The notes beneath the pieces are model-generated. The model did no database searches, had not been told where the DNA came from, and saw only the letters and a list, made by a program, of their open reading frames with translations. A stretch of DNA of 62,013 nucleotides, filler included, from Hausera hauseri (lineage: Eukaryota), in assembly GCA_046269625.1 (NCBI GenBank). It is 10 parts of 10 records of this genome, joined end to end, with 100 filler letters (N's around TTAATTAATTAA, not from the genome) between each part and the next. Parts side by side here need not be neighbours in the genome. Positions count along the whole stretch, not along the records: positions 18,464 to 22,519 come from JBJURY010789869.1; 9 more parts are not named here. One strand, written 5' to 3'. A program made the position numbers and the translations under genes. Shown here one piece after another: positions 1 to 50,150 of this stretch. Numbering within the stretch: position 1 is the stretch's first letter; every line of letters begins with the position of its first letter.

Positions 1-2
1 AA

Positions 3-2480: not shown

Positions 2481-5400
2481 CGGTGTTTGTCGTTCGTCTT
2501 TTTCATCGACGATGTATGTGGGTTCACGTTTATAAGGAACTATATTTTCATCAAGATCTTGCCTCATCTGTTGTACTTGTTGCATAGGGTATAATCCTGT
2601 ATGCACCACATATCGAGGTGCCGAAGGACTTATTAACGGTTGTTCATTATACATTTGCCCATGATACTCGTCCGCAGGAGCTAACTGAGGCAGGTCAGTT
2701 ATTAACCTTTGTCTGTACTTAGGCTTTCGTGTCTTTAACATTAAATTTTTAATACTAGGTACTCGTTTCTTTACTTTCACTTGATTATATTCCACATCAT
2801 TATCATTGGGTATACTATACAGGGATTCTTTCATGTCTCTCCTTTTTAGTATTTTCCTCTTCCATTGTGCGTCGTGGTTCGCTAAGAAACAACTTGCCAC
2901 CGCCGGTATTACCGCTATTAGAATCTTCCATGAGCATCCTACTGCTGCATGAATTCCGTAGGCTTTACCTAGTGCCGTAAATACTGTGCGTATCGCACTA
3001 ATGATAAAATATATCGCTAGAAAACCGGAGGCTGCTTGACCAAAATATAAGAACTTTCCCCACATCTTCTCCATTACATTTTTCGTTACTTTCTTTAAAT
3101 AATCTTTACCCATCAGGTTTTCCCATTGTGGTGATCCTTCGCCGTCCCACATTACTTTCCTCGTTAATTCGGTTATGACCCTCTGCCGTTGTTGGGGAAA
3201 CAATAACATACGTCGGTAATCTTCTAGATTTTGTTGGGTATAAATTCCCCCTTGCGATATTCCAGTCAATGGTTCAAATTTCTGATTTCTTTGTAAATTA
3301 ATTAAACTTAACATCTCTGGTTTAGTTACCGGCTCTCTTTTGGGCATTCTAATCCATTTATCGTTATCGATCTTGAACATTGGTGACATGTTGAAGGTGC
3401 AATTATATAATGGAGTAGGTTTCACGTTAATCTCTAACAATATTCTAGTTACTGGCATAACATATCTCGGTTCGGTATGGTAAATCACAGGCAATTCCAT
3501 CGTACATTCTTCTGTGGGTCTAATTGACACTTCTACTTTTTTACATTCTATTGTTATTAATACTTCACCCATTATTCTGCCTATAACTCCATCACCGAAA
3601 GGCATCACTGGCGCCACCATATCTGGATTTGTTATCACTAGTGCCATTTTATTACGCATTATTTCGTAATTTAACTTACACTCGTTCATTATTATCTCAC
3701 GATATAAACTTCTAATTTCTTTCCTTACGTAATTGATCAGAAAGTCAATCTTGTTATCGAAGTACTGCGTTAACTTTACATCTTTCTTATCGATTTTAGT
3801 TTTGGCACCGGGTATTTCTTTTCTTGATAAGAAAATACCCTTGTAATTCGTTTTCGTTACTTCTTCATTACATTTAGTTGCTACTCCCATGATCTTAAAT
3901 CGCATCATATCTTCCGGATTTTCTGAGTATACAATTGTAGCTACTTCCGTCATCTTGACTTCCTTCGTTCCTTCTTTGTACGTCGCTGTCTCTTTTTCTG
4001 CTGATTTTCCTACAGTTTTATTAAATTTTCCTTCCTTTAACAACGTTAATTGACATTTACTTGCTATGGTTTCCCATGTCATTTTTGACTCCCCAGTGTC
4101 ACATTCTCCGTTATCGTACTCGCACTCACTCATAGTTGTCATCAATTTTGTTTGCGAGTCGAACAACACTTCATATTCCTTTAACTGAATCTGGTAATCT
4201 TCGATAGCTACCGTTCTAGGCGCAATAGTGCCTCCTACGTCATAATCCACTCCTTTACACGAACCTTCTGCCGTTTTATCTATTCTTCCTGCCCGGTATA
4301 TTCTGGTATATTTAATTCGATTTCGTACTGCCGGTATGTGCGCGTTTTGGATCGTAATAATACCAATCTTAAAAGCGTCTTGGCACTCGGCTCGTGATAT
4401 AATAATTGGTTCAAAAGGTGTCGTAGGCTCAATTATAGCTGAATTTCCAGAATAGTAAGCACAATTGAACAGAAAGAAGGACCTCTTTACATAACATTCT
4501 CTGACCTTTGCTTTTATAAACTCCGACTCTTGATATACCCAGTATGTGAGACCACTTGTCGTTGTGAGTTGTTCCGGATCAGCTTCTGGGCATTTCTCCA
4601 GGTCTACTAGAGAGTACTTTTGACCTTCACTAGGTTTAGAGCAATCGTAGGCTACTATACCTACTGCCTTTGGCATAAGCAGTGACGTTATTAACAAAAT
4701 TTGGATAATTTCCATCATCGTCATGCCTGTCATACCTGCTCTAGTGGCGCCTGGTTGTGTCGGGACTGGCGTCTCTATTAACCTTTCTCGTTCTCCAGGT
4801 CGTATTACGTTAGTCATCAAACTGCTTAGCCATCCACCTCTACATTGAGCCCAATTACCTAACGTATCTTTCAAAATTTTTACGGCTGTTCGTATATTCC
4901 GTTCTATTTCTTCTAAGTTTTGCGTTTGATGATTTATTACTATTATTTTATATAACAGATACGATATCGCCGTTCGAGCTTTCTCGCGTGTAATTCCGGT
5001 TGCGAACATTTTCTCTAAGATATCCATCTCGTGCAGTTCATTTATTCGTTCTTCCTCTAAGTTTTCATAGAACTGCCGACTTATTCGTAACATATGATTG
5101 TGTAACGTTGTAAATAATTCATCTGGTATCATTGTCTGCATATCAAACGAGGCGAATGATGTATGTAGTCTAGCCAGTAATGTTCTCAATAATGGGTCTA
5201 TGTCCACCGATTCCGGGGTACCATCTGTTCCTGCCAATAATAATCGTCTTACTATTTCTTCGTTTCTATCCTTTCTATTACGTATATCACTTATTTTCGT
5301 TCCTTTTGGCCGGCCTTTTCTCTTAGCTTCTGTTTGAACTGTGACATCCTGAGTGTCAACCATAGGATTCCCTACTTCCTGTGGTTCTAGTTCCCTTAGA

Positions 5401-6125
5401 ATATTTTCTACTGTTGCCTGAGCTCTAGCCTCTGGGTGTATTTCGGTTATCGTTATTGGGTTGTAGTTTTCACTTCTACATCCAATTCTCAATAATGTAT
5501 CGTAGTTATATAACGTCCTTCCACCATAATTTAATCCGTAGGGGCTTCCTTGATAGAAAGGCTCCACTTCCTCTATCTTCCCCCTTAGACTTTGTATATC
5601 GTCTGCTTCGTTCATCCTTATAACCCTTAGGTCATGATTTCCTTCCCTTATTGTTATCCGTATAACTTCATTTCTCCCTTTTTCGTCCTCAGCAGCTTTG
5701 GCTAATACCGTCCTGGCTATTTCTCTAACAGGACTGGTATCTTGGGATAATAGCACCAATTGACGTAGGATCTCATTCATCCTCTCTGGCGTTATCTTGT
5801 TGGTTAGTATCTTCAATATCGTAGTAATCGTTTTATCTACATCAATTATATTATCGGGATCAACCGTCAACACTGCCTGAATGATGTCTTCTTCTTCGTC
5901 TAAATCTACACCTGGATTCCTTATTACCTGGTCCAATATAGTATCATCAAATAATGGCGTGGATTGTGTTTCTTCTGGACTGAATGAGGGTGAAGGTGTA
6001 CTAATATTACTCTTCTTTCTTCCTCTTTTCTTTTCTTTCACTATGTCTCCCCTCTCTGTTGACGTTTCTCTTGATTCTACTTCTTCTTCAACTATTTTCT
6101 TATTGCCTTTCTTTCTTCCTTTACG
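3..6125 (-). CDS. Ty3/gypsy polyprotein, partial at both ends: UBL - AT-hook - signal peptide - class III envelope glycoprotein - TM - PR - RT - RNase H - integrase N-terminus
   Basis: Hand translation finds no stop over 2041 codons. Motifs all in one frame: KRKGRPKG, IVAYDC (4641-4658), FGQAASGFLAIY, ALLDTGS (D at 2424), RFCIDYRALN, PFGLKN, MVYIDD (1113-1130), TDASDYGIGAVL, NANADYLSRLP, HDGLLGGH. Confidence 0.93.
2880..4733 (-). other. env: Envelope glycoprotein domain (chuvirus-G/gB-like class III fusogen) inside the polyprotein
   Basis: Signal MMEIIQILLITSLLMPKAVG|IVAYDC. Cys-rich ectodomain with CYVKRSFFLFNCAYYSG, a central helix YFDNKIDFL...LYREIIMNECKL, GEVLITIECK..CTMELPV..PVTRIL, and GGIYTQQNLEDYRRMLLFPQQR. 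C-terminal hydrophobic segments at about 2880-3040. Confidence 0.85.
5439..5666 (-). other. Ubiquitin-like domain within the polyprotein, no terminal GG
   Basis: 76 codons VIRITIREGNHDLRVIRMNEADDIQSLRGKIEE...YGLNYGGRTLYNYDTLLRIGC...ITITEI. Matches the ubiquitin pattern (DTIENVKAKI; LIFAGKQL; TLSDYNI). Confidence 0.75.
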
Positions 6126-6126
6126 T

Positions 6127-6226
6127 NNNNNNNNNNNNNNNNNNNNNNNNNNNNNNNNNNNNNNNNNNNNTTAATTAATTAANNNNNNNNNNNNNNNNNN
6201 NNNNNNNNNNNNNNNNNNNNNNNNNN
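6127..6226. other. Artificial contig linker; also at 13873-13972, 18364-18463, 22520-22619, 30687-30786, 38338-38437, 43067-43166, 47515-47614, 55148-55247
   Basis: Identical N44-TTAATTAATTAA-N44 with stops in all six frames. Confidence 0.99.
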
Positions 6227-8220
6227 ATCCCATGACTAATCTCCGAACCACTTTGTTTGTTTCCTTCCCTGAAGGGAGGGTTGCAGAGAACATAGGGCAG
6301 CTATAGAAGTAACAATGAAATTCATACACAAACCACAAGAGTAGATGACCGGAACAGATCAAAACTGCCATACTGAGTTAACAAAAATAAGAAACGACCA
6401 TCATCTTAGCTTTGGGGAAGCTAGATTTGTAAAGGAATTGCTCGACGCGATAGATCCTGACTCAAAAATCCTAAACGAAATGTACAAGGTAACATTACTA
6501 TTGGTAGAAATGGCAGAAATTAGTGATGAGAAGATGAGACAGTTGATGCCTCAAATACGACAGGCTGAAGAAACGTGCATTAGAATCAAAAAAGAGCAAT
6601 AAGGTTAGACGAACTAACCAAAGAACTGGACATTAATAGAAATAAATATGCATTTACTGAGTCAGGACTTAACTGAAAGACAGAATTCGTACAGAGGTGG
6701 CAAAGAGATGTAATAGTCGAACTGACTGATTATCATCAAAATGAACTCATTCATTCTGATAAACTAGGCAAACTATTGAAAATGATCCAGTATGTCTGTG
6801 AAAACGGAACAGGCTTCCAAACTACAAATGAAAGAAATACAACCAAGATTGAAAGAAATTCGATAGAACGTGCAAAGAACAAATACGGCACTAGTAGACT
6901 ATGGACTTCCGGAAGTTGGAAACAAACCAGAATGGGATGCGTACTTAGATGCTATAACTACAGAAAGTCCGATGACTCCGGTGCAACTAAACGAAACAAA
7001 AATGTATACACAGAACAGGAGATTCAATGTGAAAATGCTACTGGACTCAGCTCTAACTGAAAAAGATTTGATCGATCTAATTAAAGAAATATCTTTGAAA
7101 ATAGATTAAGACAACTTATTCCGACTCTAAATAAATTATCTAGTGAGAACACAATTTATAGCGCGGTGCCGAAACTTTTAATAAAAAATATGCTAAAATA
7201 ATAAGGGCTAAACCTGAGGTAATAATGAAAGTAACAGTATCATCCAAGTGTATGGATGAAAAGGAGTGTGTGTTATCTACATATTCCTATGTGAGGGATG
7301 TAAGAGAATGGTTAACAAATAATGGTGGAACAAATGAACTAAACTATAGATTCTACTTTAGAGGTAGAATACTGGACGATTTAAAACAGTTAATAGACGC
7401 TGGTATTATATCCGACAAAACAAACCGAATAATAGTAATAGTAGCTAATGAGCAAATTTAAGAAGAAGCCACGCGTAAAGCTAAGACAGAACAATGCGTA
7501 GGACAAATCATAGGAGCCCGAGACGCTGCAATGTATTTCGAGTATTTGCAAACGGATGAAGATAAGGAACAATATGATAAGAATTTAATGCCACAAAGGG
7601 GAATGATAACAACTGCCCAAAAACAGAAACGCCCGGTCGGTAGACCCAAGAAGACACGAGAAGAAGTTGACTATAACCGAAAATTGATTAGAAAATTGAG
7701 ACAGATGTCAGTTCCTACCTTAAGCGTAGACAACGAAGAATTAAGCGAGTTAATGGCGAATTTAATAGGCATCGTAAATTATTTAAGCCTCCATGGTGAC
7801 GTATTAGATGAAAAAGAGAAAGCGATATTTAACGCAGATCGAGTGGTGAGAAATTCTCGTTTTAAATTGTCAAAAAATATCCTAACAGACAAAATGGTGA
7901 TCGAAAAGATCATGGCGGAAAACACCATAGAGGAACTAAGAGGAAGTTAGCTACCAAAATAAATCATAGTCGAGAAAATGAGCTATAAGCTTAGCATAAA
8001 GACCGGCTAGAAAATTGCCTTGCGAAGTAAACTGGTCGAGGTTATTCGATAAGGATGAAGACAAACGATGTAGTAATAAATAATAGACCCAAAGATACGT
8101 TACATAATCTGACGAAAACGGACAATAGCAATCGGAGCAACGAATCTAATTGGCTAATCAGCTTGCTCACATTGATGATGTCAGTAAAACAGGTAGGTGC
8201 AATCACAGTTTATGACTGCG
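6227..8220 (+). pseudogene. Decayed fragment of the env-in-polyprotein family: linker, UBL (7225-7450), AT-hook (~7620-7650), signal + ITVYDC, truncated at ~8220
   Basis: ORF 7225 ...YRFYFRGRILDDLKQLIDAGI is UBL-like. ORF 7531 has KQKRPVGRPKK. WLISLLTLMMSVKQVGAITVYDC at 8150-8219. Alignable at DNA level to 25560-27500 (-). Confidence 0.8.
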
Positions 8221-8299
8221 GTTAGTACGGTTATGAGTGCCATCCGAATAATACCTAAGTTCGGCGGCATCTGCACGACACATTGGACATGTGGTTTTT

Positions 8300-10650
8300 C
8301 CATTATCTAAAGTCCAGGTTTCCAGACAAGCTCTACAATATTTATGTCTACATTACTTGTTGTTTAACTTAACAAATCCTTGGCTGATAATTTCTCTAGA
8401 GACAAGGCAGTGGTCCTCTTCTTCGTCTGTATTTTCCCGATCTAAATCGACTCAGTGAATGACCTGTTTGGGTTCAAATACCAATCCGTCTTGGTCTTGG
8501 TAAAGGTATCCATAAATTAACTTTGGTTTTGGGTCTATAGAACTTTTACGGAGATCGTAATTTACTGATAAGAGAGTCCAGTCTACTATAGTATCCTTGT
8601 CCAAATTTGTGTTATGTTTTTCTTTCTCATAGGCTTGATGTTGTTTCTTTAGTAACATTTTGATTGGTTGATCTACTGGTAATGGTAACTTTCCATTCCT
8701 TTTTGATTAAAATATTGGGGCAAGGTATTTTCCGGCTTTGGGTTTCCAGGTATATACTAGTCTTCCAAGACTTCGCGTGTTTCTAACATTTTGACGTAAA
8801 ACACAGTTTCCTTGATCTGCTGGTGACTACAGTACTCGGCCATATCTAGTATTTTTGAGTAATTGTTTTGGGTAGCATAATGTACATTTTCAGTGAATCT
8901 TTTCTTCTGCAAAATATTTACTTCTGCAAACATTTGCATGAATCTGTCTCCTGAACTTCTTTTGTTAGTCGCGGCTTTAACTTTTCTTCGCATCGGTTCG
9001 GTTTTCGGCACATCTGCCTCCTTAGGCCGAATTTCCTTTTTGGTTGTGAGAATTTCGGATTCTTTAATTTTCTGCGGAGCTAGAATTTTAGGTTCTTTAG
9101 TACTCTTCGGTAATTCATTCTTATTTTCGGTATTCTTTTTCTTCCTTCTGAATAAATAATTGTAAAGGGATAGCTTTCTCTTTGGGACGAACGCTGGTAT
9201 CTACATTTTCTGCCTCTTTGGGGAGTTTTCTACTTATCCATTTTGGGAATATTTCCTTGGGGTCTCTGGTATTTTGAATTCAGTTGAGGTCGTTGTTTCT
9301 TGGTATTTCTTTTTACGACTGAACTACACATCTAATGACGATTTAGTTTGATTTTTCTCTCGAATAGAACTAAATCCATAGCTGGTGCTAGGTTTATTTT
9401 CTTGTATTTTGTTGGGATCAACGATTCTATATGGAAAGTACGGTCTGTAGTGTTTTTAGTGTTTCTTACTCAGTTTTTCTGGACTAGTGAAACTTCTCAA
9501 GTTCTGTTCTGGGCTTGTGGGGATCCATTCATGGTCCCATTTTAAAGTCATATATATCACGCAAGTACTGTGTCCGTTGGCTTGCGGTTAATAACTTGCT
9601 AATTTTAACGTGTTTGCTATTCACTGCGTCGTCCATTAATTTGAAGTATCTGTCTGTAACTTTTGACATTGGGTAATTTTTTCTCGCAACGTCAATTTTG
9701 TTTGTTCCGCGACTACGGGGTGTTATCTTATCTCGTATCTCTGGGATGCTTGAGCGGGGTATTTCCAACAATTCAACATAAACAGTGTTCTAATTTGGCT
9801 TGGACTTGTTTAATATCTTCACCTCTCGCAAAAGGTTTCTTTGCGGATTTTTGTTGTATCGTAGTACGTTTCACGCACGCAATTTCTAGGGCTAATAGTT
9901 TTGCAATATATTTCTCTTCCGTTTGTTTTTTGTATTGCAACTTAAATCGGGATTTCGTGCGCATGGCTTCCATCTCCGCAACTAATCGCTATTATCCTCG
10001 TGTTTCGGGCATCCGATCCTAAGTTGTAAGATTGCCTGGCGGTTTCTATTTCCTTCTCTGATGGTTATTGGCAAAATCTCAAAGGTGGTAACTGGACATA
10101 GAGGTAATCTTCATAAGTCACTTCAAACATTAATTTTACAGTAAGTGCAGCTACTTGGAATTCTAACTCGTAATGACACAGATCTCCACCACATAGAAAA
10201 AGGGTACTAAATCTGTACTGTCTTCCACTATTGGCATTTCATGTCTGATCTTTTATCCGATAATATTTCTCACCGACTGCTAGGTGGATAAAATGCTGTG
10301 GTGATGAATTGGTTCGTATTTAATCATTTGCTTTAAAGAGTATTCCCTAGCGTCTTTGTTTTCTCTCACTGAATATATATACACGATACGATTTTCTTCT
10401 GTTATGCCCTTTAAGTTATTCAGAATCTCGCTTGTTTGGTTGTATTCGACGTATGTATTTTCGTGTAGCTCGTCGTTTATTTGTCTGAAGATCGATTTTG
10501 AATTTGGAATATATACGGTTGCACGTTTCTGGAGGAACTCGTCGATACTATATCGCCCTTGTTCTTTAGTGGATTGCGGTCCGCCGATTCTACATCGGCG
10601 GGGTTCTTTTCTCGAGGCTTTTTCGTTACTCATCAATCTAAAAAACAAAC
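8300..10650 (-). pseudogene. Further decayed accessory ORF remnants of unknown function (basic/helical)
   Basis: Chain of minus-strand ORF fragments 10280-10648, 9773-9973, 9529-9771, 8757-9011, 8452-8658. A diverged second copy of 9620-9830 lies inverted at 13495-13704. Confidence 0.4.
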
Positions 10651-18463: not shown

Positions 18464-18805
18464 TTTTCGAAATCATCAATATTGGCATTATCGGAAATCC
18501 GTTATTATTGATTTTTGCACACTTGCACATGTGCTATGGACCTGCACATAATCAATCAAGGTGCAACTCGATGTGCTCTATCGACTAGCACTTTATCCTG
18601 TTCGATTGAATCAATACTGCACTGTGCAGCGATCGATTTGTGGAATGTGCAAAAATGTGCTTAGCAACGGTGCCTAACGGCACTGTTTCCAGGCGCTTTA
18701 TGGATCGATTGTGCTCCGGGTGCACTATCGATCGGTACATGTCCAATATCGATTTATTGATTATCGATCGGGGGGGTTGGCGCAGTGCGCTCTCTTCCCC
18801 CTACT
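18464..18805 (-). mobile_element. Probable Polinton/Maverick TIR end, second copy
   Basis: Ends CCCCCTACT. Reverse complement matches 13705-13872. Rich in ATCGAT and TGCACA words. Confidence 0.6.
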
Positions 18806-19109
18806 GTCACAGATCCAATGTGTTAATTATTATGATCGACTTTGACTAATAACATAACTTTATGCTGAAAATTCTTTTAAAACTTTGTTTTGGTTCGTGT
18901 TGTGCCTGTTGTCAAAATGTATATTGGATATCTTATACAAAATGTAAATATTGAATTATTAATGTATAATTTTTGAATTTGAAATACATAATTTATATAC
19001 TATCAAGGTTTTTAGATTATCTTTATTGTTCTATCATTTGGATCTAAATTGGTATCTGGAATCAAATTGGTGTCAGAAAATCGCTAGAATAGAATCACCC
19101 GCGTAACAA

Positions 19110-20990
19110 AAATGAATAATCTCAGAGAATTCTGATAACTATGATGAATTGGTAATGGATATCTGCAGATTTATGGACGCCAAAATCCGATGTGAACTAC
19201 CTAATGAATTTTTCGAAATCCACATAACCGGACGAATTTGGAGAGCAGCCGAGTGCAAACTTAGCATTGAAATCTGTACTCCCGACGTGTGTATTGACTA
19301 CCCGGAATATACTGCAAAACGGCGAATTTTTCGACATTACTTAGAAAATCCGAAAATGCTCTTCATGGTTATTGAAGAGAACGATTTTGCCATACTTATA
19401 AATCCACCATTTCCACTACGATCGTCTGCTTTCAATCGTCATAGCTCACCTCTCGAGGAGGATAAAGTAGCATTGGCCGATTTGCAAGAAAAAACTAAAG
19501 CACCTCTATTCGTAGCATATTACTACAAAGATCACGTAATGAAATTGCCCAATAAAAATTCATTTTTTGAAACGTTTATTGAAGCTGATGCTGCAACGTT
19601 TACCAAAAGAATTCAGGAAATTATATTTAATTCAGTTAAAGGTCAGCATTTAGATTTTCTGATGGGGGCCATTAAATTCTTCATTTGGCCACTTACAACT
19701 AGTGGCTGCGATAGTATAGCAATTTCTTTGTGCGAATCTGTACTTAATGGTTCTAATCACAGTTATAAACTTGTTCGACGGGTAATACCCATGCTCTGTC
19801 GATGTATTGATTTTCAGAATCTCATATTTGGACAATAATGATGTGAATTTTTGTCTATTAAACATACTGCCGCAAGACCAAAAGTGTATTGAAGTTGAAA
19901 TTTTTCTTCTTGCTGACATTGAACCAGCTTCCAATACACTTATTTTTTTAATAAACAAAGATACTCTTGATAATCCAATCACATCAAACTGTAACTGTAT
20001 TTTGAAACCATACAGCAGCAAATCATCTCTGACGAAGAATGCTAAGTTTTTGACATTTACCGTATAATATAGACAATGCGAATATAGAAACAATGAGAAA
20101 GAAAGTTCAGCAGCAAAATCAATGTCATTGCAATGACAATGAATCGTCTGCTCAAATTGCAATAAATCTTATCGTTAGAAAGCTTTTCAATAACCCAACT
20201 GCGTGTTCCAAGGAAATTAAATGTTCCAAAAATTTTTACAATCCTACCGTTACACCAAAAGTCTATGTTAGTTTTTGCGTTGCCTTATTCAATCGAATTA
20301 ACGATAACATTCAATTTTTATTCCGAATGTCAAATGACCATATTATGGAGAAAGGGTTTTTATCAACTGCTGTGCTACCATTTAAAATTTCCTTGAATGG
20401 GTATTTAATGCAGCTTTTCTTTAAAAAACACAACAAAACAGATTTTGAAAAATATAACATTAATTACACAACTCTATGCACCAAAAAAACTTAAAAAGCG
20501 GGGCGGTGAAATCCAAAACATCAAAATTAACCCATTGGCATTCATTTTGATTAGTCCTCAGTTCGATAAAGTACAATTAATGCAATTTTGCTATGGCTTT
20601 ATAGGAGCCTTACTAAAACTGTCGCTAATGACAAAAAACATCAAATGAATGGACAGACTGACATATTCACTAATTTACCTTCATTCACCAATTCAATGTA
20701 CCATCGAGTATATCTGTTGAAATTAAATGGATCAAAAATGTCTAATAATATACCTATAACAACACATTTCGCCGAATACACCATATTGAATATCCCGTTC
20801 AATCTTCCATTTAAAGTACCGATTTCTCCGACTGCACAAAGGCAATTTTCGAATCACTTACTACATCAATTAAAAACTAAAAATCTCGGATTTGTCAGAA
20901 CGATTTTGATGCCATTGTCGACAATTATTTGTAAAAAAAAGGGGAAAGTTCTTTTCCTTATGAATATCATGCCAATAAACACAAAATAAT
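19110..20990 (+). pseudogene. Decayed orphan ORF (~600 codons in pieces), function unknown
   Basis: Successive overlapping plus-strand ORFs 19149-19838, 19807-20067, 20093-20494, 20445-20648, 20588-20989 with globular composition. No family recognised with confidence. Confidence 0.4.
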
Positions 20991-21195
20991 TGTTGTTCAG
21001 AATCTGTTTTTACTATCGTTGGATTTAAAGATAAATACTGATAACGGTGTTGACAATCTGAAATCCGTTGACGAAATGGAAAATGAAAGAACGACTCTTC
21101 ACAATATCCTCTCTCAGTCTCTCGGTAACAAACATTCGAAAACACCTCAATAGCCTATTTCAACATTCGGGATTGCAATATTCAAACGCAGGTGG

Positions 21196-22519
21196 GTGAG
21201 ATTTCTTTCATTTATCCGCTCCCACCGGTGTGGCCATTTTTCCCGCATTTGCATACCCTCTCTGGCCCAGACCATTTTTAATTTTAAGGCATTTCCACAT
21301 CTAAAATCTTTGTATACTTCTTCATCACAAACATCACAAAGCCTCTGTGCATTACATCGTTCTTTTGAGGTAACCTCATCACAATTACCTTTCATCGTCT
21401 CCTGTCACAATCAGCACATCACAACCCTACAAGCACCACTTAACGAGATAGCACAGGTTTTATATGACGCTTTATCCTTATCACATAGCCTTCCTGATTT
21501 TTATTTAACATATAATGGGCTTATAGTACATCCTTCAGACTCCATTTTGTCTTTCATATGCCACGAACGCCCATACACCTGTATAGTGCTTCATTTTCGT
21601 TTACGGCGTGGATCGGATCCCGATCCTTCTTACATGGAAAGCACCACAAAGATTAGGTCTGATCGTCGTCCTGTCAACCCTACACCAAACACATGTCCCA
21701 GTCTCCCATTCACGGATTTCTTTCTAGACAAAACGAATTCCAGTCGTACCTGGCTGCAATTCCATTTGCAGTGGCTCAAAGCCAATTACATTACAGATTT
21801 CTTTCTTCGTGCTAACAGTTTGCTGCTATTACTCCCAGCCAACATCAAACAGCAAATCAGTAATCTGGCTGACATCCTTTCTTCTTCAAGCCCGTATGAT
21901 ATGCTGTAAGAATCTGTTTTATATATCACTGACCCTTCCATCGACAGCATAATCCAGAAGTACTTTAACGAACACGCCATTGGAAATCAAAAACTATCGG
22001 ATTTCCTTAAAACGGCCATCTCACAACTGAGCTCTTTAGGCGTGACTCCGACGAACAATGCTGATCTTCTTTGTCGATACTTTTTCTCATCTCTGCTTAC
22101 TGTAGTAGATGACTCTACTGCCCTCGAAAAGCTTACCTTATTGGCAGACAAAAGCTTTGATATTCTTCAGTCTAATAACTCTCAGCCTGTAGCCGCAGCA
22201 ACTGCTCATACACTGCCAGACAACACTTTATTTGCATAACAACTGAACATGATGCAGAAACAATTCGATACCCCCCAACAAGCAATGTCTGCAATCACGG
22301 CCCAACTTAGTGACTTATCCGTGCCTTGAGGAAGTGAAAATCGTATTTCTCGCAATCGCAGTTTTTCCAGGCACTCTTCTCGTTCTAAATCTAGAGATGG
22401 CAGAATGACGTGCTTCTATCATAACAAATTCCGCAAAGATGTAAGGAAATGTGTTTTAGGCTGTCGATTCTACGATGCACGATATGCCGTAGACAATCCA
22501 ATCTGCATCTATCACGCAA
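21196..22519 (+). mobile_element. gag: CsRn1-like Ty3/gypsy gag (decayed) with N-terminal ubiquitin-like domain
   Basis: FYLTYNGLIVH...IVLHFRLRRG|SDP, then Gag (RTWLQFH..ITDFFLRA..PYDML..IGNQKLSDFL) and CFYHNKF...C...C plus a second CIYH motif. Confidence 0.75.
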
Positions 22520-22619: not shown

Positions 22620-22912
22620 ACATATGATGGATTTTGAAAAGGACGCTTACGCGGAAGCATATGTTCAGTCAAAAATACAATATCTCGGATTTTAAAATAA
22701 ATATCGTAACAACGGTACAATGATAGAAGATTTTAAAGAGAAATATCCGTTTTCACCTTTGTGTCAGCTGCAGCATACTCAACTTCTGAAAACCGGTAAT
22801 CTCAAATTGGATTTTCGTTTCCACAAGAGTTGGCTGAAACCTTCATCATGTGTGTATACGGTATATTAGATTCAACGGTGGAAATTACCAAGATTGATCA
22901 AATTTTTGCATA
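22620..22912 (+). pseudogene. Polinton major capsid protein C-terminal remnant
   Basis: MDFEKDAYAEAYV..LGF..RNNG..IEDFKEKYPF..HTQLLKTGNLKLDFRF..LAETFIMCVYGILDSTVEITK matches the Polinton MCP C-terminal pattern. Confidence 0.7.
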
Positions 22913-22919
22913 AAGAAGA

Positions 22920-25900
22920 ATATTTATAATCAACTTTACATAAAGTAAGTACTTCCGGATTCAATTTGTACATTGATTTCAACATCTGGCCAAAGGCCCT
23001 TGTACTTTCGGGGTCTCTTGTTAATGGTGGATACGACTGTACTTTTAGCGCTTGTGGAATTGAATCATTTTTGATATAAGATATCTCGAAGCCTGTGTCA
23101 ATTAGGGCGTAAACTTCCCAGTCTTTATTAGTGACTTTGGAGAATGGCCTGCCTTCTATTACTGTTCCGAAACAATTTGACGCGGCTTATGGCCGTTTAA
23201 TCGTTGATATTTTGTGGACATTTATTTTGATTTCTGGGGAGGACACTACATTTTCAGATATTTGTCTTAGATCTCCATTTGGGTATAATTCATTGATTTA
23301 CATGTTCGACTCATCTTTTCCATGAGTACTGATTAGTGGTTCACGGTTGTTCGTATGTGGCTCTATAATTCGAAAAGTTTGAATCCTTTGATTTCCCCAG
23401 ACGGTTAGTCTGGTTTCTATATTCCGGGGTTATTTTGGAGAGTATAACATTCAATGATCATCCACCGACTGTCAGTAGAGGGCGTCGAATTAGCCCTATT
23501 CTCGTGCATTTTTCGTAAGACTCCATATTGCTTTGTTCCTTCATAAGGGTCTTCTAGACTAAATGATTTTTTATAAATTTCTGTTTGATACGAAACCATT
23601 GATCGTTTATTACAGACTTCGTAGACTTGTGCAGTTGGCGGCAACATGAGCAACTGTGCTTTTACAATGGAATACGTCTTACGTCTACTTACTTTAGGGA
23701 GGGCTTCTCCTACCTTAGGTTCGTCATCATCTAAACTTTTCTTTTGAATTTTGGGTTTTAAAACTTTCTCCTGCAAAAGAATATAGTCTTTCTTCTTTGT
23801 TTGCGATTATGGTAGCCGACATGACACTCTACGTCTGTTTTCCAATTGCTGTCTTCATAATCCTTTAGAAATTTTCCGAACGGTGTTATAATTGTAGTTA
23901 AAATTTAACATTAAAATCCAGTTAACATAAATAATTCGTACCCATTTATTACTGCCTTTATCGAGATTTTGATTAACTTCATTAAGATATATATCGCCAA
24001 AAATCCAGATGCGGCTTGTCCAAAAATTAAAAATTTTCCCAATATTTTATATTGTATCTCTGTGGTCATCAGTTGGTAATCGTCTGCAGCGAGAAAGGAT
24101 TCCCATTTAGCTTGGTATCGAGTATTGTCTACTACTGATTCCATGGTTCGATTTAATTCGTGTGTTCGTTGTCGCGAAAAAGCGAGAAATTGTCTAAAGG
24201 CTTCGATTTTCTTTCGTCGGTATATATCTTTCGATGAGGTATCATGGAATTTGTTATCCGTCATTCATCTTACAAGATCGGTTTCCGTTAACTTAATCAA
24301 GGCGGCGGTAATGCCGCCATTGGACAAACTTGCCCAATCCGTTTCGCTACGTCTAAACATTGGTTCGCCTAAACTTGCTTTACATTTTTTCAGGATCGTT
24401 GGCTAAGTTGCATTATTTAACAGTACTCTAGTAGGATACATAATCCACCGAGAAATATTCTGATATATAACCGGATGTTCTTGTATACATCGATTTTCTT
24501 CAACATTGATTGACTTCGTCGGTAACTCGACCGAAATTTCCTTCTCTCATTGGGATTAATGCTGATAATTCAGGATTGATATAAGAGCCCATTTTGTTCT
24601 CATGATTTCTATACCTAATTGACAATCGTTCGTTATCATCTAGTGGTATATTTTGCCTATTCCGACTTGTCCTTTGTAGCAGAAATAATCATCTCGATTT
24701 TTCAAATAATCTTCAATTCGGATGTCCTGCGTTTGTAAATTGTACATTCTCGCACTTATTTCGGTATCTGTGACAAAAAATGCTTCATAATTAGTGGAAA
24801 ACGTCACTACTTCGCAACGGGAGATCATTTCCTTTTTATTAAATTTTAATCCATGAGGGTCAGAGATTAATATAGTTGGCGTAGAGTGCTCCGCTACGTC
24901 TTCGCGTGTCCTTGTGTTGGTGTCAAATTTATTCACATATCGCTTACCGGTAGTCTCGTTGAATTTCAATTCCTTAATTTTGATAAAATTACAAGGTCTT
25001 CAAGAGGGAGGTTCCCATATTATAACTGAACTTCTGAAAGCACACGTTCCATCCTGTAGACGACATCTTTGATTTTCGGTGTATACTTTGGTGATACTAT
25101 GAAACATCAACTTCTGCGCTCGCATTTCTGATTCATAGAAATCTACATCCATTACGTTTGTTTCTATTCCTTTACCGGTGTCGTACTGTGCTCCATTAGT
25201 TTCCATTGTGCATATCTAGTCTTCCTACCACTACATTATATGCTCTAATTTTTTTCCTTGTTACATTTCAAGTTCCATCCCATCCCATTGTAGTCTTCCT
25301 TTTTCCCTAGCCTGCTTACAATGTTATCTTAAATTTATTGGAATTAAGGGCGTCGTTGGTTTGATTATCGTATGTTAATCCACAGTGGAAAATACTACGA
25401 GATCGTCGCAACATACATTCCATTCCATCCAGTGATATTAACTCTTGATGCTGATATAAGAAGTAACTTTTCTCTTTTGTCTCCAGCTTATGCGGTCTAG
25501 CGTCTTGTCAGGCTTCTAAGTCCATTAAGGAATATTTCTGTCCAAGTTTATATTTATCGCAGTCTTATACTGTGATGGCACCTATTTGTTTTACTAACAT
25601 CATCAAAGTGAGTAAGTTGATTAGCCAATTGGATTCATTTCTCCGATTGCTATTATCCGTCGTCGTCAGATTACGTAACGCATCTTCGAGTCTGTTACTA
25701 TTACTTGATCGTTTGTCTTTACCAAATAATCTTCACCAGTTTACTTCTCGAGGCAATTTCCTAGCCTCGTAGCTATTAATTTCGTTATCGACTGCTATTT
25801 GTTTGGATAGCTAACTATCGTAACACTTTTCTTAGTTGTTCTATCGTGTTTCCCACCATGGTCTTCTCGATCACAAAATCATCGGTTAGGTTACTCTTTG

Positions 25901-28900
25901 ATAATTTAAGAAGGGAATTTCTCATCATTCTAGCTGCGTTAAATATTGATTTCTCTTTTTCGTCTAATACGTCACCACGGAGGCTTGAATAATTTACGAT
26001 GCGTATTAGATTTTTCATTAACTCGCGCTAAAAGTAGGAATTGACATCTGTCTTAATTCTCTAATCAGTTCTCCGTTATAATCAACTTCTCGTATTTTTC
26101 TGGGTCTACCAACAGGGCGTTTCTGTTTCGGAACAGTTGTTATCATTTTACTCAGTGGCACTAAATTCTTATCGTATTGTTACTTGTCTTCACCCGTTTT
26201 CAAATACTGAAAATACATGGCAGCGTCTCGGACTCACATGATTTATCCTATGCTTTGTTCTGTCTTAGTCTTACGTGTGGCTTCTTTAGTCTGCTCATTT
26301 GCTACTGTTGACACTGGTTTTTCTCGTCGGGTATAATTCCAATGTCTATTAATTGTTCTAAGTCGTCCAGTATTCTACCTCTAAAATAGAATCTATAATT
26401 TAGCTAATTTGTTCCACCATTGTTTATTAACCATTCTCTTACATCCCTCACATAGGAATAAGTAGTTAACTAACATTCCTTTTCATCCATCCAGTCGGAT
26501 GATACCCTGACTTTCATCGTTACCTCAGGTTTAGTCCTTAAGATTTTAGCATATTTCTTTATCAAAAGTTTCGGCACTGCGCTATAAACTGTGTTCTTAC
26601 TAGATATTTTAATTAGAGTCGGAATAAGTTATTTTAACTTATTTCTGTAATATTTACGTTAATTAGTTTGATTAAATCTTTCTCAGTTAGCGCTGAATCC
26701 AGGAGCATCTCTACATTGGATCTCCTATTCTGTGGATACATTTCTGTTGCGTTTAGTCGTACTGGAGTTGTCTGATTTTTGGAAGTTATTGCATCTAAAT
26801 ACGCATCATATTCTGGTTCATTTCCAACTTTTGGAAGTCCATAGTCTACTAGCGCTGTATTCGATCTTTGTGCGTTCTCGCGAATTTCCTTCAATTTTGG
26901 TTGTATTTCTTTCATCTGAGTAGTTCGGAAACCTATCCCGTTTCCACAGGCATACTGGATCATTTTCAATAATTCGCCATGTTCATTAGAGTGAATAAGT
27001 CCCTTTTTATGATAATCAGTCAGTTCGATAATTACATCTCTTTGCCATCTCTGTACAAATTCTGTCTTCCTTTGAATTTCTGACTCGGTAAAGGTATATT
27101 TGTTTCTATAGATCTCGAACTCTAGTTAGTTCGTCTAACCTTATTGCTCTCTGTTTGGTTCTAATGTACGTTTCTTCGGCTTGTCGTATTTGAAGTATTA
27201 ATTGTCTCGTCTTCTCATTACTAATTTCTGCCATTTCTGTCAGTAGTAATGTTAACTCGTACATCTTGTTTAGGACTTTTTAGTCTGGATCTATCGCATC
27301 GAGCAATTTCTTTACAAACCTAGCTTCCACAAAGCTCAGGTGATGGTCGTTTCTTCTTTTTGTTGGCCCAGTATGACAATTTTAATCTGTTCCGGTCATC
27401 CATTCTTGTGATTTGTGTATGAATTTCATTGCTTCCTCTATAGCTGTTCTATGTTCTGGACAAATATCTAAAGTTTCGAGGTCCTGAATTGAAATTTCGC
27501 TAATAGGTTTAGCTGTCAATTGTTGGATTCCTTCTAAGCGGACGTTTCTTAATCTTGGATAGAAATTGCAAGTCATATTTCGCTTCTCCGTAAAACTTCT
27601 TTCTTCGATCATTTGGTATATCTCTTCCAATATAGTCATTTCTTGTTTCTTTTTCATAAAATTCAATTTTCGTAATGCGTCGAATTGAGTCCGGATATCT
27701 ATTTCCGCTCTTATTGTGTCTACGTTACGTGCACTTTCTTCTAGACGTTTATTTACTGTAATTCATCTATCTGGAAATTGTTAAACGGATTTTCACAGAT
27801 TTACTTAGTCTCGATATTAATTCGGACCATGCATCTAGCTGATTAGTTATGACTGTTTTTGCCAATATCGCCTTGTCTAGCATTTTGTAAGCATCTTTTA
27901 ATTCATCATTTGGTCCTTTTATAAAACTCAATCTGGCCGACATAATTAAATTCATCCTTATATTCGTCGAATTCCACGATACCAGCTTTTATTACGTGTT
28001 TGGTTTCTTCGTTATTCATAAACATTATTCGGTTTCTCAAGCTATAAATTTGTGATCTCTTCGTTCTCCTTTTTAATACGAGTCTCTACGTTCGTATATT
28101 GTTTATGTACGGCGAAGGCAATTTTTATCATCTCCATTAAGGAAGATATCTGCCGTGTCTATACCTAATATTTCTAAATCATTATAAATTCGATTGTTAA
28201 CCGGTTTTTCCCTAAGTCGATTAATCATTGCATATCTAATTCCATCCATAATGCACTCTATATTACGAACCACTTTTTTCAATCTAGGATTAGCTTCTAA
28301 CGTAGACAATAGTGTATCAGCTTTGGCTACTTTTACATCAACACTCTTCGTTTTTGCTCCATTCTTCCGAAAATTCGACTCCTTTTATCCATGATTCTAA
28401 TTCATGTTTCCATTTTGTCAACGTTTCAGGTGGCACTTCCTCTAGTGCCACTTCTTAGGTTGCCTAAGTCGATTGCTTCATCGAGTTTTCCTTCACTACA
28501 TAATTTCAAACTTTTATATAACCTCTCAACAAATTGCTGCTCCTTATCGGATATATCTACTTGTTTGCTAATCCGCTTAAGCTTTTCTAAATTCAGCTGC
28601 AGTATTTCTGGATCGTGGCAGTTAATTCTCAATTCTTAATTCATCGGCGTTTTTCCACGAACGTCTAACCTTCCATTTTCTCTGGTCGAAATTCTTCATG
28701 TTCCCTGTTTCTTCCTCACTAGTGGGAAGTGGGCAAATCTCATTTATTTCATTAATTAACTCTACAGATTTTTCCATCCCGATGGGTGTAAATTGACCTA
28801 TCTCTGGTGTGTTCAAGCTGGTTTCTACGTCACTTTCTACAGTAATGTTCGTATCTTTTGTTTCTACTAATTTCTCTAGTTACTTGAGATCGTGAAGGAA

Positions 28901-30686
28901 TTCTGTTATTGTTTAAGTGAAGGGCTACGGCTTCTGTGTATCGTAATTTTAAGTATTAATGGTTCCATAAATTTATCGGCTATATCGTCTTCGGTAACCT
29001 TATTTATTTTTTCGATTGTGAACTCAGGCCCTGCATCTAAGTCGACGTCTGTCGAAGTTCCTGGATTATCTGACTTATTTACTATTTTGTTAGTTGCCGG
29101 AACACTCTTCTTTTGTGTCATATCAATTCGCTTTTGCGCTATAGCATACTCGTGCTCTGTTTCCGGTTTTGCTAATCCATGATATACTTCTAGTAATCTT
29201 AGCTTATCTCCGTATTCTTTTCTGGCCATTAAAATTTGTGGATTAATAGCTTCAGCCTGAGAATCTAAAATTTTTCGTAAGTCTTGTATGTCGATAATAG
29301 TACCTATATCTCCAAGAATACCATATTTTGCTTTTAAGTTTTTATTAACTAATTATACTAGTCTTATTGGGCTCATTGAATGAAACGCTACGCGGATTTG
29401 GACATGATCTTGCAATGTGTCATTCTTTACCTCAAGTAAAACAAACTAAGTTTCCATTTCTGCCTACTCTGTCGACTGCCTTCATTTACAGGTGACTTGA
29501 ATCGGTTTGTGTTTCTATTGTACTGGTTTATCAAACTTTGTGTACTACCTATATTTCGTCGACTATCATTATTTCGATTATCATCATAACGATTTCGATA
29601 GTTAGAACCTTTATAGCTTCCTTCATTTCTATCTGTATCTGAATTAGACTTATTCAAATTTCGATCATTACCATAATTGTTATTTTGACTATCTCTGTAA
29701 TCGTTATTGCTATTTCTATTCTCATAATTGCTGTTACTGTTAAATCGTCTATTATCTCTTACGCGATTATCACCGCGATTTCTACCACTGCGATCATTTT
29801 GTTCATTATTTCTGTCATTTCTATCATTGTGTTTGGCATATTTATCAAGTGCCATCTCTAAGTCCTGGGCCAACTGCAAGGTTCTCTCGAAATTTTCAGG
29901 TCTAGCTAAAATTAACTGCTTTACTAAATCTCTGGACCAAATACCATTAATCAATTGGGTCGTAATCATGACGTCCAAATCTGGAGGGTTTGCCTTTTCC
30001 GCAGCTTCACGTTCTGCGTCTGTTTTGGCCTTTGCCACATTAGCTATTCTCAGTGTACTTACATAACTATTAGCGAGTTTCTTTAATGCAAATGCAAACT
30101 GGGTTACCGACTCCCCCTTCTGTTGTACCCTATTCTGAAATACCATAAATTTCTGTTGTAGCGTTACTGTTGGCAATAATTTACGGTTTAATGCTTCTAC
30201 CAGGGAGGACCAAGATTTCTTTTAATCATTAGTGAGCTCGCCGTAAGCGTCTGCGGCTAGATTTTTGAAATATAACAACAAACGTTTAATCATTACGTCA
30301 GGAGTAAGACTAGCACCTTCTGTGTGCAACTTATAAGTTCTCAAAAATTCGTTCAATTCGTCCGGATCACCTTAGTATGCCGGTAGATTCAGAGAATCAA
30401 AAGTGAAGTGCGCTACTGGTGGGTTATCTGCTGCCATATTATTTACGTAATCTCTAAATTTACTTTATTGTCTCTGTGAACTTTAGTTTTTACAAGAGGA
30501 ATCTTAAACTTATTAGTTCGCTGAACGGCTGTTAAATTTGGATTAACTGAGTTTACTCTTGTTTCAGAAAGTGAATGTTTATCCAAGTTTTCACTATTTC
30601 TATATGTATTTCTACGCTTCTGACGTATAGGCGAGTTTTCCTTATCGTTTAGATTAAGATTCATTTTAGACATCAATATTTCTTTA
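22920..30686 (-). mobile_element. Decayed env-in-polyprotein Ty3/gypsy element: gag (~29400-30437), ~2.9-kb linker, UBL (26300-26517), AT-hook (~26100), signal, glycoprotein (23900-25620), tail, protease (~22930-23150)
   Basis: Gag FQNRVQQKGESVTQFAFALKKLA; KQKRPVGRPRK; LLTLMMLVKQIGAITV*DC; FGQAASGFLAIY; EVYALIDTGFEISY. Many stops and frameshifts. Confidence 0.85.
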
Positions 30687-41400: not shown

Positions 41401-41560
41401 GAGGCAATCAAGAGCTGTTGTGTCTCATACGATCAGCCGATCGATTGAGCACCAGCAGCATACGGTGACCAATACAAAAGTCGCTTTATACAATAATGTT
41501 AAGTAAGTGAGTGGGGCGGAATAAGAGTTGGGCGTACGGACATTAGCGTTTGTAATAAAA
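38438..41560 (+). pseudogene. Polinton protein-primed DNA polymerase B with inserted HNH/EndoVII domain (decayed)
   Basis: KGSGWRI; YVIYANIEA; DHDHFIGRYFGAACNSCNL; FHN..GYD; IRGGMT; YIDINNL; YYKLKNNS..GKTVEN; EWVFVRPK; many stops. Confidence 0.9.
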
Positions 41561-42170
41561 CACGCATGAATTCGGTGCAGATAGATCAATGTACTGTGAC
41601 AATTCATTGTGATCTCTGTTTTGTATAAATAATGTTTATTTTTCGTTGTTTCTGCCTTTTTTATCATTTAATTTATCTATATACATTTATATATTTTACT
41701 TAATGTGACGAGAAACAATATAAAAAATCAATAAAATTTATTAATCATAAGCTAAAATCAAAAACAAAGTCATAACAGCGTAAACTTTCCCAACTTCCAT
41801 ATTGGTGATTTAACGCCATGAAGAACCTTGTATCCTTTCAACGTCAATGTTAGATGGCCTTTAGTTCCTTCCTGTGGCAAAACTGTTTTTCTACTGCTGC
41901 TGTTTCTCCACCGTGTGAGCTGACAATTCTCGCCATATTTCGTTGAGAAAAATGGACGATATATCTCGGATATCATTACTCAACACCAAATCACTCAGTT
42001 TTTCTAATTGTGTCTTCCATTGTATCCAAATCATCGTCGATGATCTTTTTCACCAATAAACCATATTTCACCGCTTTGATTTTGACTATTTGCGTCAATG
42101 GTAATTGAATACCGTTGCGCAGATAATGTAAGTGATAATAAGCACTGTATAATCATCATTGACATTGTGA

Positions 42171-47614: not shown

Positions 47615-50150
47615 AGTCTGAGATGTTCTTTGTGTTGTTTGGGCGATGCCGATGCGACTAGTATGTCATCAATGTATGGATATACAAATGGCAAGTCTGA
47701 AAGAACTGAATCAATGTGCCGTTGGAAACTTTGTGCTGCGTTCTTTAAACCGAATGGCATGAATGCGTATTCGAAAAGACCAAAAGGTGTTATCATAGTC
47801 GTTTTTTAGATGTCTTCTGGCGCTACCGGTATTTGGTTGTAGGCTTTTTCGAGATCTGTAGTCGAATAGATTGTCGTCTTGTGTAAGGAATGTAATATAT
47901 CCTTAATCAAAGGTATGGGATAAGCGTACATAGTAGTGACGTTATTAAGTTGGCGATAATCGCGGCATGGACGGAATGTTCCATCGTTTTTCCGGACGAC
48001 GTGCAGTGCTGTTGTCCAAGGTGATTTGGAGCGTTTTATTATGCCAGCTTGTTCGAGTGCAGAGAATTCCGCTTAGACTCCCTGTCTGCGGCGTGGTGAA
48101 AACTGGCGGAGTTTCTGCCTAAGGGGCCTAAGATTTTCTGTGATGATATGATGAAACGTAGTGTTAGCCGGTCGAAATTCTGGATCTTTTTTAATTGTAT
48201 AGAAACAAGATTTGACTAAGTATTGTTGCATTTCCTGGCTAAGTGTCGTAAAGGCTGTTATTGTTATGGCAGTGGACAGATTGGATTTAGTATGAGAAAT
48301 GGTAGAAATCGGGCCACATAAATCGGACTGCAACAGAAAAGTAGGATTGTTTATATTGGCTTTATCAGTAAGGTTTTTATTCGCATTGGTTAATGGTTTC
48401 TTCAATATTGATTTTATATTTGAGATAGGCTGCGAGAAGGGTTGGTTATTTGTAGGGGTCGGCTTTGTTAAACGGCTTTTACTGATTAGACGTTGTCTAC
48501 AATCTACAAGGAGGTTGTAGATGGATAAGAAATTAGACCCAAGTATAAGAGATTGTGTGTCGGCAACGATGAATGTCCAATTGAAAATGTCGGAGAATGG
48601 TGTTAAAGTGAATAAAACTATGGACGTGCCGAAAATGCGTAATGCTTGGCCGTTAGCTGTATACAATTTTGTGTTGGAGGGAGATATGGATAGTGTTTTG
48701 ATGGATGGTGGTAATAAAGAAACAGCTGCACCGGAGTCAATTAGGAAGTTGATTAATCCATTAGGATTGGAGGTTAAAGATGCTTTTAATGTAAAAACGG
48801 CATAAGTACGGCTATCGTGATGAAAACGTTTGCCTGTGCCAGCATGTGCCAAAACATTTGGCAGCTTTATGAGTTTTTTGGAGGCACGGGATTTATGTCG
48901 TTGGAAAATGTAGGTCGTTTTGAATTAGATCAGTTAACGAAAATGCAAACTGTAACGCAGTTATGTGCTTTAGAATTTAATTTGTTATGGTAAATGCAGA
49001 TAATGTCGGGTCGTTTAAAATGAGGAGCATAAAATCTGCTACCTAGGTAGCACTTAGTTAAGTTGTCTTTAAATTTGGTGTGGTAGTAACACACCATTGA
49101 TCGTGTAGGTGACCCTTCATGCTTCTAATTTTTAGATGAAGTGCGGCTATGGTTCGTATCAAAACGATTTTGTCTAGGCATAATCAAAGCTTCGATTTTT
49201 GACGTGAGTGCAGAAATTGCTTGATGTATGTTGGCGTTTTCGGCACGTAAAGAATTTATCTGAGTTCAGATTAGCTATGTCGCTAGCTTGTTGAGTTATT
49301 AGTGCTTGTAACGTAACGGCTATTAATGGGGCTGTATGTGCATGTAATATCTGGTGGCTTTTGTCAGCCAGCTGTGCTAGTTTTGTAGTGATAATGCGTC
49401 CTCTACTATTGTAAATAGTGCGCGTATGTCTCTTAATAAAGACAGTAGGAAATACCTGCGTAGTAAATAGGCGTTGTTTGCCTGATTAACGCTAAGAGTG
49501 CTTAATTGGGTTAGTGAGGTTTGAAGAAATTCTGAGGGCTTTAATGTGCCTATGGTATTGTCACTGAAATATTTGTGGATAATGTTATCCATAGACGATT
49601 CAGTGATTTTTAAAATAGAGTTAAAAGTGTTTTATATGGATCACTACTTTGGAAAATTTCTGATAAATTAGAAAGCTGCGACTTAATGTTAGAAGGCAAG
49701 AGTATAAGCAAACTGTTTGCTTTAAGAAACAAGTCAACAATATTATTTGACTTCAACCAAGCCGCATGAAAGTCCAACCACGTCCTGCTGGAGTTTTGAT
49801 TGTCGACGAAGTATTCTACGCAAGGTAGATTTACAGCAGACGACGGAGGTAAAGGTGAATTTAACGGTACACTTATAGTGGGAATGTCGGCAAAATCTTG
49901 TTGGTCCTTAGATGTTTTTGGATCAGATCCACCTAGCAGGTGAGTGTGCAGTAACTATAGGTGTCGAAGAGGAGCGAGTGTAGTTAGTGATAATGTCTGG
50001 TGCAAAAAAATCCGTTAAAACTAAAACGAAAATTAATCGGGAATATTTCTCGTTGGAGTACGCTAAACAAATTTGCGGTAGTTGCAGTTTGATATATGTA
50101 GTATGTATGTGTGTCTGTTTTCAAGCAACAAAGTAAGGAAGATAACGTTT
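47615..50150 (-). mobile_element. CsRn1-like Ty3/gypsy element (decayed): UBL-gag (48900-50150), protease (48500-48800), RT (47615-48170)
   Basis: LHTHLLGG|SDP; SSRTWLDFH; IGTLKPSEFL; two CxYH..C motifs; FLIDSGAAVSLLP; MPFGLKNAAQSFQR; YIDDIL. Confidence 0.88.

Follow-up and report, generated by a model that had tools for sequence, protein, structure and literature searches.

A ubiquitin-like domain ending in diglycine ahead of Gag in a clade of gypsy-type elements, with two decayed members in Hausera hauseri

The ubiquitin-like domain (UBL) that precedes Gag throughout a wide clade of gypsy-type elements is probably a processing signal cut by the host, which would allow the 5' leader to be translated and then discarded, and the leader that we studied in the genome of Hausera hauseri is probably a decayed member of this clade. 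In the mechanism that we propose, an AUG inside the long terminal repeat (LTR) opens one frame that, in the DNA of relatives, runs through the priming site and the leader into UBL-GG-Gag. Transcription would begin just behind a TGTTTAAA box, in which case the LTR AUG would be the first AUG that a ribosome meets. The tag is a ubiquitin-derived domain with an invariant GG, with R72 and L73 kept and with a next residue that avoids Pro and the primary N-degron residues. As known ubiquitin fusions suggest, a host deubiquitinase or UBL protease would cut after the GG, so that Gag and Gag-Pol would begin at a small, defined residue, and the upstream peptide would have no sequence-specific job and be degraded. 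The pol gene, as read in the loci, overlaps ORF1 in the -1 frame at AAAAAAC-type sites and codes for a protease of the element's own.

Two broken copies and their surroundings in the window

The window, by which we mean the whole stretch of 62,013 nucleotides that was analysed, is made up of ten contigs with spacers between them that each read 44 N, TTAATTAATTAA and 44 N (6127-6226 and eight like places), so that neighbours across a spacer are not real neighbours. Its features are listed in Table 1. Copy 1 lies on the fourth contig, where the open frame 21154-21909(+) reads FYLTYNG...IVLHFRLRRG|SDP and continues into Gag. This part of the first-pass annotation stands, but copy 1 lacks a diglycine because Arg (CGT, 21607-21609) occupies the first glycine position, with Gly (21610-21612) in the second, and its Gag is interrupted by stops at 21907, 22237 and 22327. 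The first of its CHCC knuckles begins at 22411, and the second, from 22504, is left incomplete where the contig ends at 22519. As had been noted before, no in-frame ATG occurs between the stop at 21151-21153 and the GG position, and the nearest upstream in-frame ATG, at 21076, lies beyond that stop. Sequence searches with the leader of copy 1 alone gave no match in Pfam or PDB.

Table 1 Features of the window
Feature	Position	Strand	Basis or remark
Possible 5' LTR (TGT...TCA, AT-rich)	18805..19064	+	Sequence; presumed to belong to copy 1
Primer-binding site TGGTGTCAGAAA, of the family's type	19068..19079	+	Sole such match in the window
Sense-strand coding-like DNA between priming site and UBL	19116..21150	+	Long open frames
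Stop-free leader without Met, in frame with UBL-Gag	21154..21381	+	Frame reading
Copy 1 ubiquitin-like domain, end RLRRG	21382..21612	+	Profile, fold model
Copy 1 Gag, DUF7041 type by its relatives	21613..22519	+	Three stops; cut by contig end
Copy 2 pol, broken, cut by contig end	47615..48924	-	Aspartic protease DSG 48738, RT YIDD 47676
Copy 2 Gag, frame-broken, CHCC-type knuckles at 49091 and 48998	48873..49927	-	Sequence
Copy 2 ubiquitin-like domain, frame-broken, LLGG end at 49928	49928..50130	-	Motifs, profile
Ankyrin-repeat and KH gene, two 40-nt GT-AG introns	50507-53837	-	Further frame switch near 51980
Second gypsy family, Monjiviricetes-type fusion glycoprotein	55248-62013	-	Pfam E 2e-42

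The possible LTR and the priming site ahead of copy 1 presumably belong to it and may be another element's, because about 2.5 kb of coding-like DNA intervenes before the UBL; the distance from the priming site to the GG position is 2545 nt, compared with 414-728 nt in the 11 relative loci that carry both on one contig. An ATG at 18917 in the possible LTR opens a frame that crosses the priming site and is now interrupted by stops, and a second copy of this LTR was not found within the window. Frames of at least 70 aa cover 98% of 19068-21381 (shuffles: mean 9%, maximum 35%), and sequence searches with 19116-21150 gave no match. A 48-nt piece at 21048-21094 is 90% like the ankyrin-KH gene on another contig, which we take to be Mask/ANKHD1. 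We considered this gene as an intronless retrocopy and excluded it as such, since its two 40-nt GT-AG introns keep the frame; it is therefore genomic host DNA. The coding-like stretch may likewise be genomic host DNA, and it may represent cargo of the element or a flanking host gene.

For copy 2, both motifs that had been reported, FRFSFNG and LHTHLLGG|SDP, exist, but they sit in different frames with stops between them, so the continuous reading given earlier does not hold. A slippery heptamer AAAAAAC is present at 48879-48873(-), and the pol shares 41-43% identity with that of the UBL clade, compared with 32-33% for two single-CHCC elements. No priming site was found for copy 2, which sits behind the intron-bearing host gene. 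The two copies represent different subfamilies (Gag 50% identical over 102 aa), and both are dead.

Six-frame Pfam scans covered the last two contigs of the window and identified the second gypsy family there. Like copies of this family occupy 1-6126, 6227-8300 and 22620-30686, and on the first contig the fusion glycoprotein shares a single frame with the gag-like sequence and the protease-RT that flank it. The front of this family at 5100-5699(-) is faintly ubiquitin-like and has no GG; a single-sequence model of this candidate leader reached a pLDDT of 40, and its profile scores were insignificant. Elsewhere in the window, an A-rich tandem array with a 15-nt period and long open frames occupies one contig (13929-18363), and two 3-kb stretches at 38438-41907 and 43523-47066 are 78% identical and carry a motif that, as we take it, resembles protein-primed DNA polymerase.

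Spread of the domain and its kinship with ubiquitin

A search of 1.84 billion protein representatives gave 293 matches, and 33 of the best 150 of these, which were examined, carry a UBL ending in GG just ahead of a CsRn1-type Gag. The same arrangement is present in 17 of the 18 loci that we fetched, and the remaining locus begins inside gag. A doubled CHCC knuckle was seen in 36 of the best 150 matches, five of which start inside Gag; among the 31 that include the Gag start, the GG stands 10-46 residues ahead of the core of Gag in 28, and the three without it start merely 22-27 residues ahead of the core. Four clade members that are cut at the C-terminus carry the GG too. The other 110 matches show some GG upstream in seven cases and a UBL in one, P0146, a single-CHCC Gag outside the clade whose UBL ends in RLRGG (Pfam E 2.5e-6) and reflects either a second origin or the ancestral state. 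An extra protein search with the clade alignment contributed no more than four further proteins, all single-CHCC or partial, and failed to recover most of the known members, and no relative was found among viral contigs. On a quick Gag tree of 80 rows, in which 37 of 98 UBL-less Gags were kept, the single-CHCC group including P0146 is set apart with an SH-aLRT of 95, and the UBL label needs 5 changes versus 26.8 in shuffles. Position, frame and GG of the fusion are constant down to about 25% Gag identity. Judged by this spread, the UBL-Gag fusion is an old trait of the whole clade and not a capture in the Hausera hauseri genome; being common to so wide a clade, it does not represent the second, independent capture in this genome for which it had been taken.

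A profile of 32 relatives' leaders ranked copy 1 best of the window's six-frame pieces (E 1.5e-7), with the front half of copy 2 in second place (E 0.064). When the RLxGG tail was removed, copy 1 again came best of 414 pieces (E 1.4e-4), and it reached E 6e-3 when its nearest relatives were left out as well; with a profile built from the loci alone, copy 1 scored weakly (E 0.043). Five members, P0045 and L001-L004, have near-canonical ubiquitin domains (Pfam ubiquitin E 1e-24 to 5e-19), and most other domains of the clade are far diverged, below 30% like ubiquitin. Without the tail, the diverged leaders match the near-canonical ones at a probability of 93, and the copy-1 branch matches the diverged leaders at 40 (shuffles at most 1.4) and near-canonical ubiquitin directly at 0.4, which is no better than shuffles. 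On these comparisons the clade's domain is ubiquitin-derived, and the link of the copy-1 branch to ubiquitin is transitive, via the diverged leaders. An AlphaFold model of the copy-1 leader, for which a 42-row alignment with near-canonical members among its rows was used, predicts a beta-grasp over residues 1-80 (pLDDT about 80-90). It matches ISG15, FAT10, SUMO and ubiquitin at TM 0.85 (ISG15: Z 12.5, rmsd 1.8 over 75 residues), in fold-search lists that were filled by UBL matches and barely probed the Gag half of the model. Profile, relatives and predicted fold thus bear out the first-pass annotation in its central claim, a ubiquitin-like leader with a beta-grasp fold ahead of Gag.

The dN/dS values were 0.03-0.28 for Gag and 0.16-0.54 for the UBL (from the 14 of 17 pairs that could be computed), and 0.23-1.05 for the leader, the latter on poor alignments; the UBL values support purifying selection on the domain, so that the constraint expected of it was found. 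One could still suppose that a scrap of ubiquitin mRNA was captured and has no function, or that the motif arose by chance, since both window copies are broken, but we give this almost no credence. The constancy of position, frame and GG holds in 33 proteins and 17 loci, the UBL dN/dS speaks against it too, and barring artefacts, the family data refute it already. The Gag of L004 is 72-73% like those of L007 and L010, and its UBL only 26-40%, and the near-canonical domains (L001-L004, P0045) are interleaved with diverged ones (L007, L010) on the Gag tree. This suggests that the near-canonical tags arose by re-capture or module exchange, and one branch may have refreshed its tag with near-canonical ubiquitin.

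Translation start and the GG junction

The 18 loci were obtained in one metagenome scan with a six-protein alignment of one sister branch, from which all of them come; several of them are near-copies, and their contigs are short or collapsed to a single LTR. The priming site TGGTGTCAGAAG, which we take to match tRNA-Leu, occurs in 13 of the 18 loci and lies upstream of the GG on the same contig in 11. In nine of these 11 a single frame of 200-323 codons runs to the GG from an ATG situated 94-324 nt upstream of the priming site, and in the other two, L004 and L009, the frame is broken between the AUG and Gag. In seven loci the LTR start is recognizable by a purine tract followed by TATGT, 342-687 nt upstream of the priming site, and the ATG therefore lies inside the LTR. 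When the region was fixed from the priming site, the Gag frame proved stop-free in 8 of 11 loci (shuffle P at most 0.004); stops were found in L007 (one, upstream of its ATG), L004 (four) and L009 (16, with another frame open up to the UBL), compared with 6-16 in shuffles. Over the nine continuous loci, the Gag frame contains 1 stop, and the other frames contain 60 and 137. Nine non-duplicate loci show a clear TGTTTAAA-like box, presumably the promoter; the first ATG behind it belongs to the Gag frame in seven of them and opens the long leader frame in the remaining two.

Across the loci, the frame passes through the priming site in each of the three phases. L008 (1680-2250) and L009 (280-903) share the LTR head and the sequence after the priming site, and the stretch from the AUG to the priming site is wholly different between them and open in both. 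A translated priming-site signature upstream of the UBL was recognized in 12 of 35 clade proteins versus 1 of 117 others, and the nearest relative of copy 1, P0007/P0155, is among the proteins that carry it. The LTR-AUG layout is what the DNA of the sister branch reads, and the branch of the window is known from decayed copies. In L010, L012 and L018, an A before the priming site creates an in-frame ATG (MVSE), and P0039, which has no UBL, begins at this ATG.

Translation might instead begin at the UBL or close to it, whether through internal entry, from a non-AUG codon or on a spliced exon, with the upstream open frame being incidental. The start of the ubiquitin domain lacks Met in most members, copy 1 has the ATG-free stretch described above, L003 retains Met1, and the host has 40-nt introns, with short GT-AG candidates present before copy 1, all of which would suit such a start. 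Nevertheless, we consider it quite unlikely, given that in 9 of 11 loci the Gag frame crosses an AT-rich leader without a stop and that the first ATG behind the box falls where it does. With an in-frame LTR AUG available in 9 of 11 loci, the non-AUG start that the first-pass annotation had envisaged is unneeded. That the leader peptide itself serves a function, for example as a membrane anchor of Gag, or that the element's own protease makes the cut, is highly improbable in our judgement. Some leaders are hydrophobic and pol encodes an aspartic protease, but 0 of 9 leaders were more hydrophobic than shuffles at P <0.05, the frames differ among elements, and the GG is unlike the hydrophobic sites that retroviral-type proteases prefer.

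For the host-cut tag that we favour, the residues around the junction are informative. They were tabulated in 44 non-redundant members (32 proteins and 12 loci), with the near-copies P0025, L006, L009, L012, L015 and L016 left out. Position 72 is Arg in 33 of the 44, position 73 is Leu, Ile or Val in 43, and position 74 is variable. The GG|SDP junction that had been proposed is conserved in its GG, which is invariant in the family, but not in the residue that follows, which is Ser in 17 of the 44, Asn in 6, Met in 5, and Gly, Thr and Ala in 4 each, with 35 members having S, A, T, G, M or V. Proline, which blocks ubiquitin-fusion cuts when it follows the GG, is found directly after it in 0 of 44 members versus 36 of 396 residues at the next nine positions (P 0.015, kinship ignored), and primary N-degron residues in 1 of 44 (P 0.0025 versus the next nine positions, kinship ignored). 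This pattern resembles a protease site rather than a modifier and fits a proteolytic release of Gag.

The surface by which ubiquitin meets E1 and its binders includes R42, the I44 patch and V70. Among 32 aligned relatives, R42 is retained in 6, I44 in 8 and V70 in 3; copy 1 has Y, T and H there, and K29 and the I44 patch are mostly lost in the family. A conjugatable product as the purpose of the fusion, as suggested before, is not supported on this ground. It is accordingly unlikely, in our view, that the released UBL is itself the point of the fusion, being conjugated to host proteins or acting as a decoy of the ubiquitin system. A free GG end after cleavage, the frequent R72, the five near-canonical members and the UBL dN/dS below 1 would all agree with such a role, but apart from the lost surface, the domains diverge to 20-40% where Gag stays at 55-84%, and the product would bear 120-250 unconserved residues in front. 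We regard as very unlikely the further possibility that the UBL stays uncleaved on Gag and keeps copy number low as a tag for degradation, proteasome docking or solubility. Deubiquitinases may fail to act on the many domains that are distant from ubiquitin, as the selectivity toward FUBI illustrates, but an uncleaved tag would have no need for an invariant GG or for the avoidance of Pro after it, and K29 and the I44 patch are lost in most members. The same divergence bears on the host-cut tag, because most domains are below 30% like ubiquitin and lack R42, I44 and V70. In the accessible text of one study, FUBI, which is 36% like ubiquitin, is cut by USP16 and USP36 and excludes other enzymes, most deubiquitinases being unable to cut it (PMC10611586), so the clade's domains would need a tolerant enzyme.

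We also put forward, tentatively and as a possible extension, that the clade has abolished its 5' UTR: the LTR, the priming site and the packaging leader would be translated as a throw-away peptide, the host-cut ubiquitin tag would reset the N-terminus of Gag, and host mRNA pieces may replace the LTR interior or the leader and even provide the start codon. A tag that resets the Gag N-terminus would leave the ORF1 front free for any in-frame sequence, with Gag unharmed. The predicted proteins P0007 and P0155 consist of a DIS3 piece (Rrp44-like), the priming site, a CNOT1 piece, the UBL and Gag, and other host-gene fronts are present in P0011, P0013, P0014, P0023 and P0025 (ARP8, HSP90, H2A, 5'-nucleotidase and SCC3); these host-front ORF1s are known as predicted proteins and may be spliced gene models. 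If true, the throw-away leader would explain the DIS3, CNOT1 and like host-piece fusions.

Relation to known elements and ubiquitin fusions

The clade resembles CsRn1 in its pol region. An AAAAAAC-type site closes ORF1 in all 12 loci that were checked for it, and pol occupies the -1 frame in 11 of 11; all five loci pol proteins scanned contain RT, RNase H and integrase, with the motifs PR DT/SG, RT YXDD, RH DAS and IN GPY/F, no env or chromodomain, and no deubiquitinase (OTU/Ulp1) domain. The CHCC knuckle CX2HX9CX3C is present in copy 1 and doubled in copy 2. In the window, the tRNA-Trp primer-binding site TGGTGA(G/C)CCCG was not found, and there is no TGGTGACCCCG. According to the accessible part of the published description, the CsRn1 clade (CsRn1, PwRn1, AgCR1-14) shares with the UBL clade the CX2HX9CX3C knuckle, the DUF7041-type Gag, the motifs DT/SG, YXDD, DAS and GPY/F and the -1 gag-pol overlap; the UBL clade differs in its TGGTGTCAGAAG instead of tRNA-Trp priming site, its two knuckles, the UBL-GG ahead of Gag and the ORF1 start inside the LTR (PMC2582038). 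The word ubiquitin is absent from that part of the paper (PMC2582038). The CsRn1-like label given earlier is thus right as to knuckle and pol motifs; the UBL clade appears to be kin to the CsRn1 clade, and plain membership is not supported because the priming site is not of the tRNA-Trp type and the knuckle is doubled.

A literature search covering titles and abstract starts, with Repbase, GyDB, Dfam and subscription journals outside its scope, did not find a UBL-Gag fusion. If our reading is true, this would be a strategy of Gag expression that we did not find described, and a natural, lineage-wide version of the ubiquitin-fusion technique, which would resolve the conflict that a long structured leader poses for translation. 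Particle formation would then depend on a host deubiquitinase, and the N-terminus of Gag would stand under N-degron control. It would also explain why gene callers fail to find a start for these Gags, and it would offer a reason, open to testing, for the tolerance of some LTR families toward host sequence within their terminal repeats. The clade would moreover provide dozens of diverged natural substrates for asking what deubiquitinases minimally recognize.

Some Ty1/copia elements have a gag that begins within the LTR and extends across the priming site, and the glyco-Gag of murine leukaemia virus is similar. As in the UBL clade, the cis-acting RNA at the 5' end forms part of the translated Gag frame in these systems; their extension stays in the protein, whereas that of the UBL clade is unconserved and would be removed at the UBL.

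Host cleavage at a captured ubiquitin has its closest parallel in pestiviruses. As described in the accessible text on the ubiquitin insertions of BVDV Osloss, CP1 and CP Rit, host hydrolases cut even truncated ubiquitin behind foreign sequence, and captured ubiquitin is, as it would be here, the site where they make the authentic N-terminus of a viral protein (PMC8310069). The pestivirus insertions are sporadic and recent and place near-intact ubiquitin inside an RNA-virus polyprotein (PMC8310069), whereas the UBL clade has an old, fixed and strongly diverged domain before Gag, clade-wide. FUBI-eS30 and the ubiquitin-ribosomal protein fusions likewise combine a diverged UBL and a diglycine with cutting by particular deubiquitinases, but they are, in the part of the source available, host genes with the UBL at its own Met and no disposable leader, unlike UBL-Gag (PMC10611586). 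Finally, Ginger transposons carry OTU or Ulp1 domains and are, as far as the available part of their description goes, like the UBL clade in being mobile elements that took up parts of the ubiquitin system; they carry the protease, and the UBL clade would carry the substrate tag (PMC2836005).
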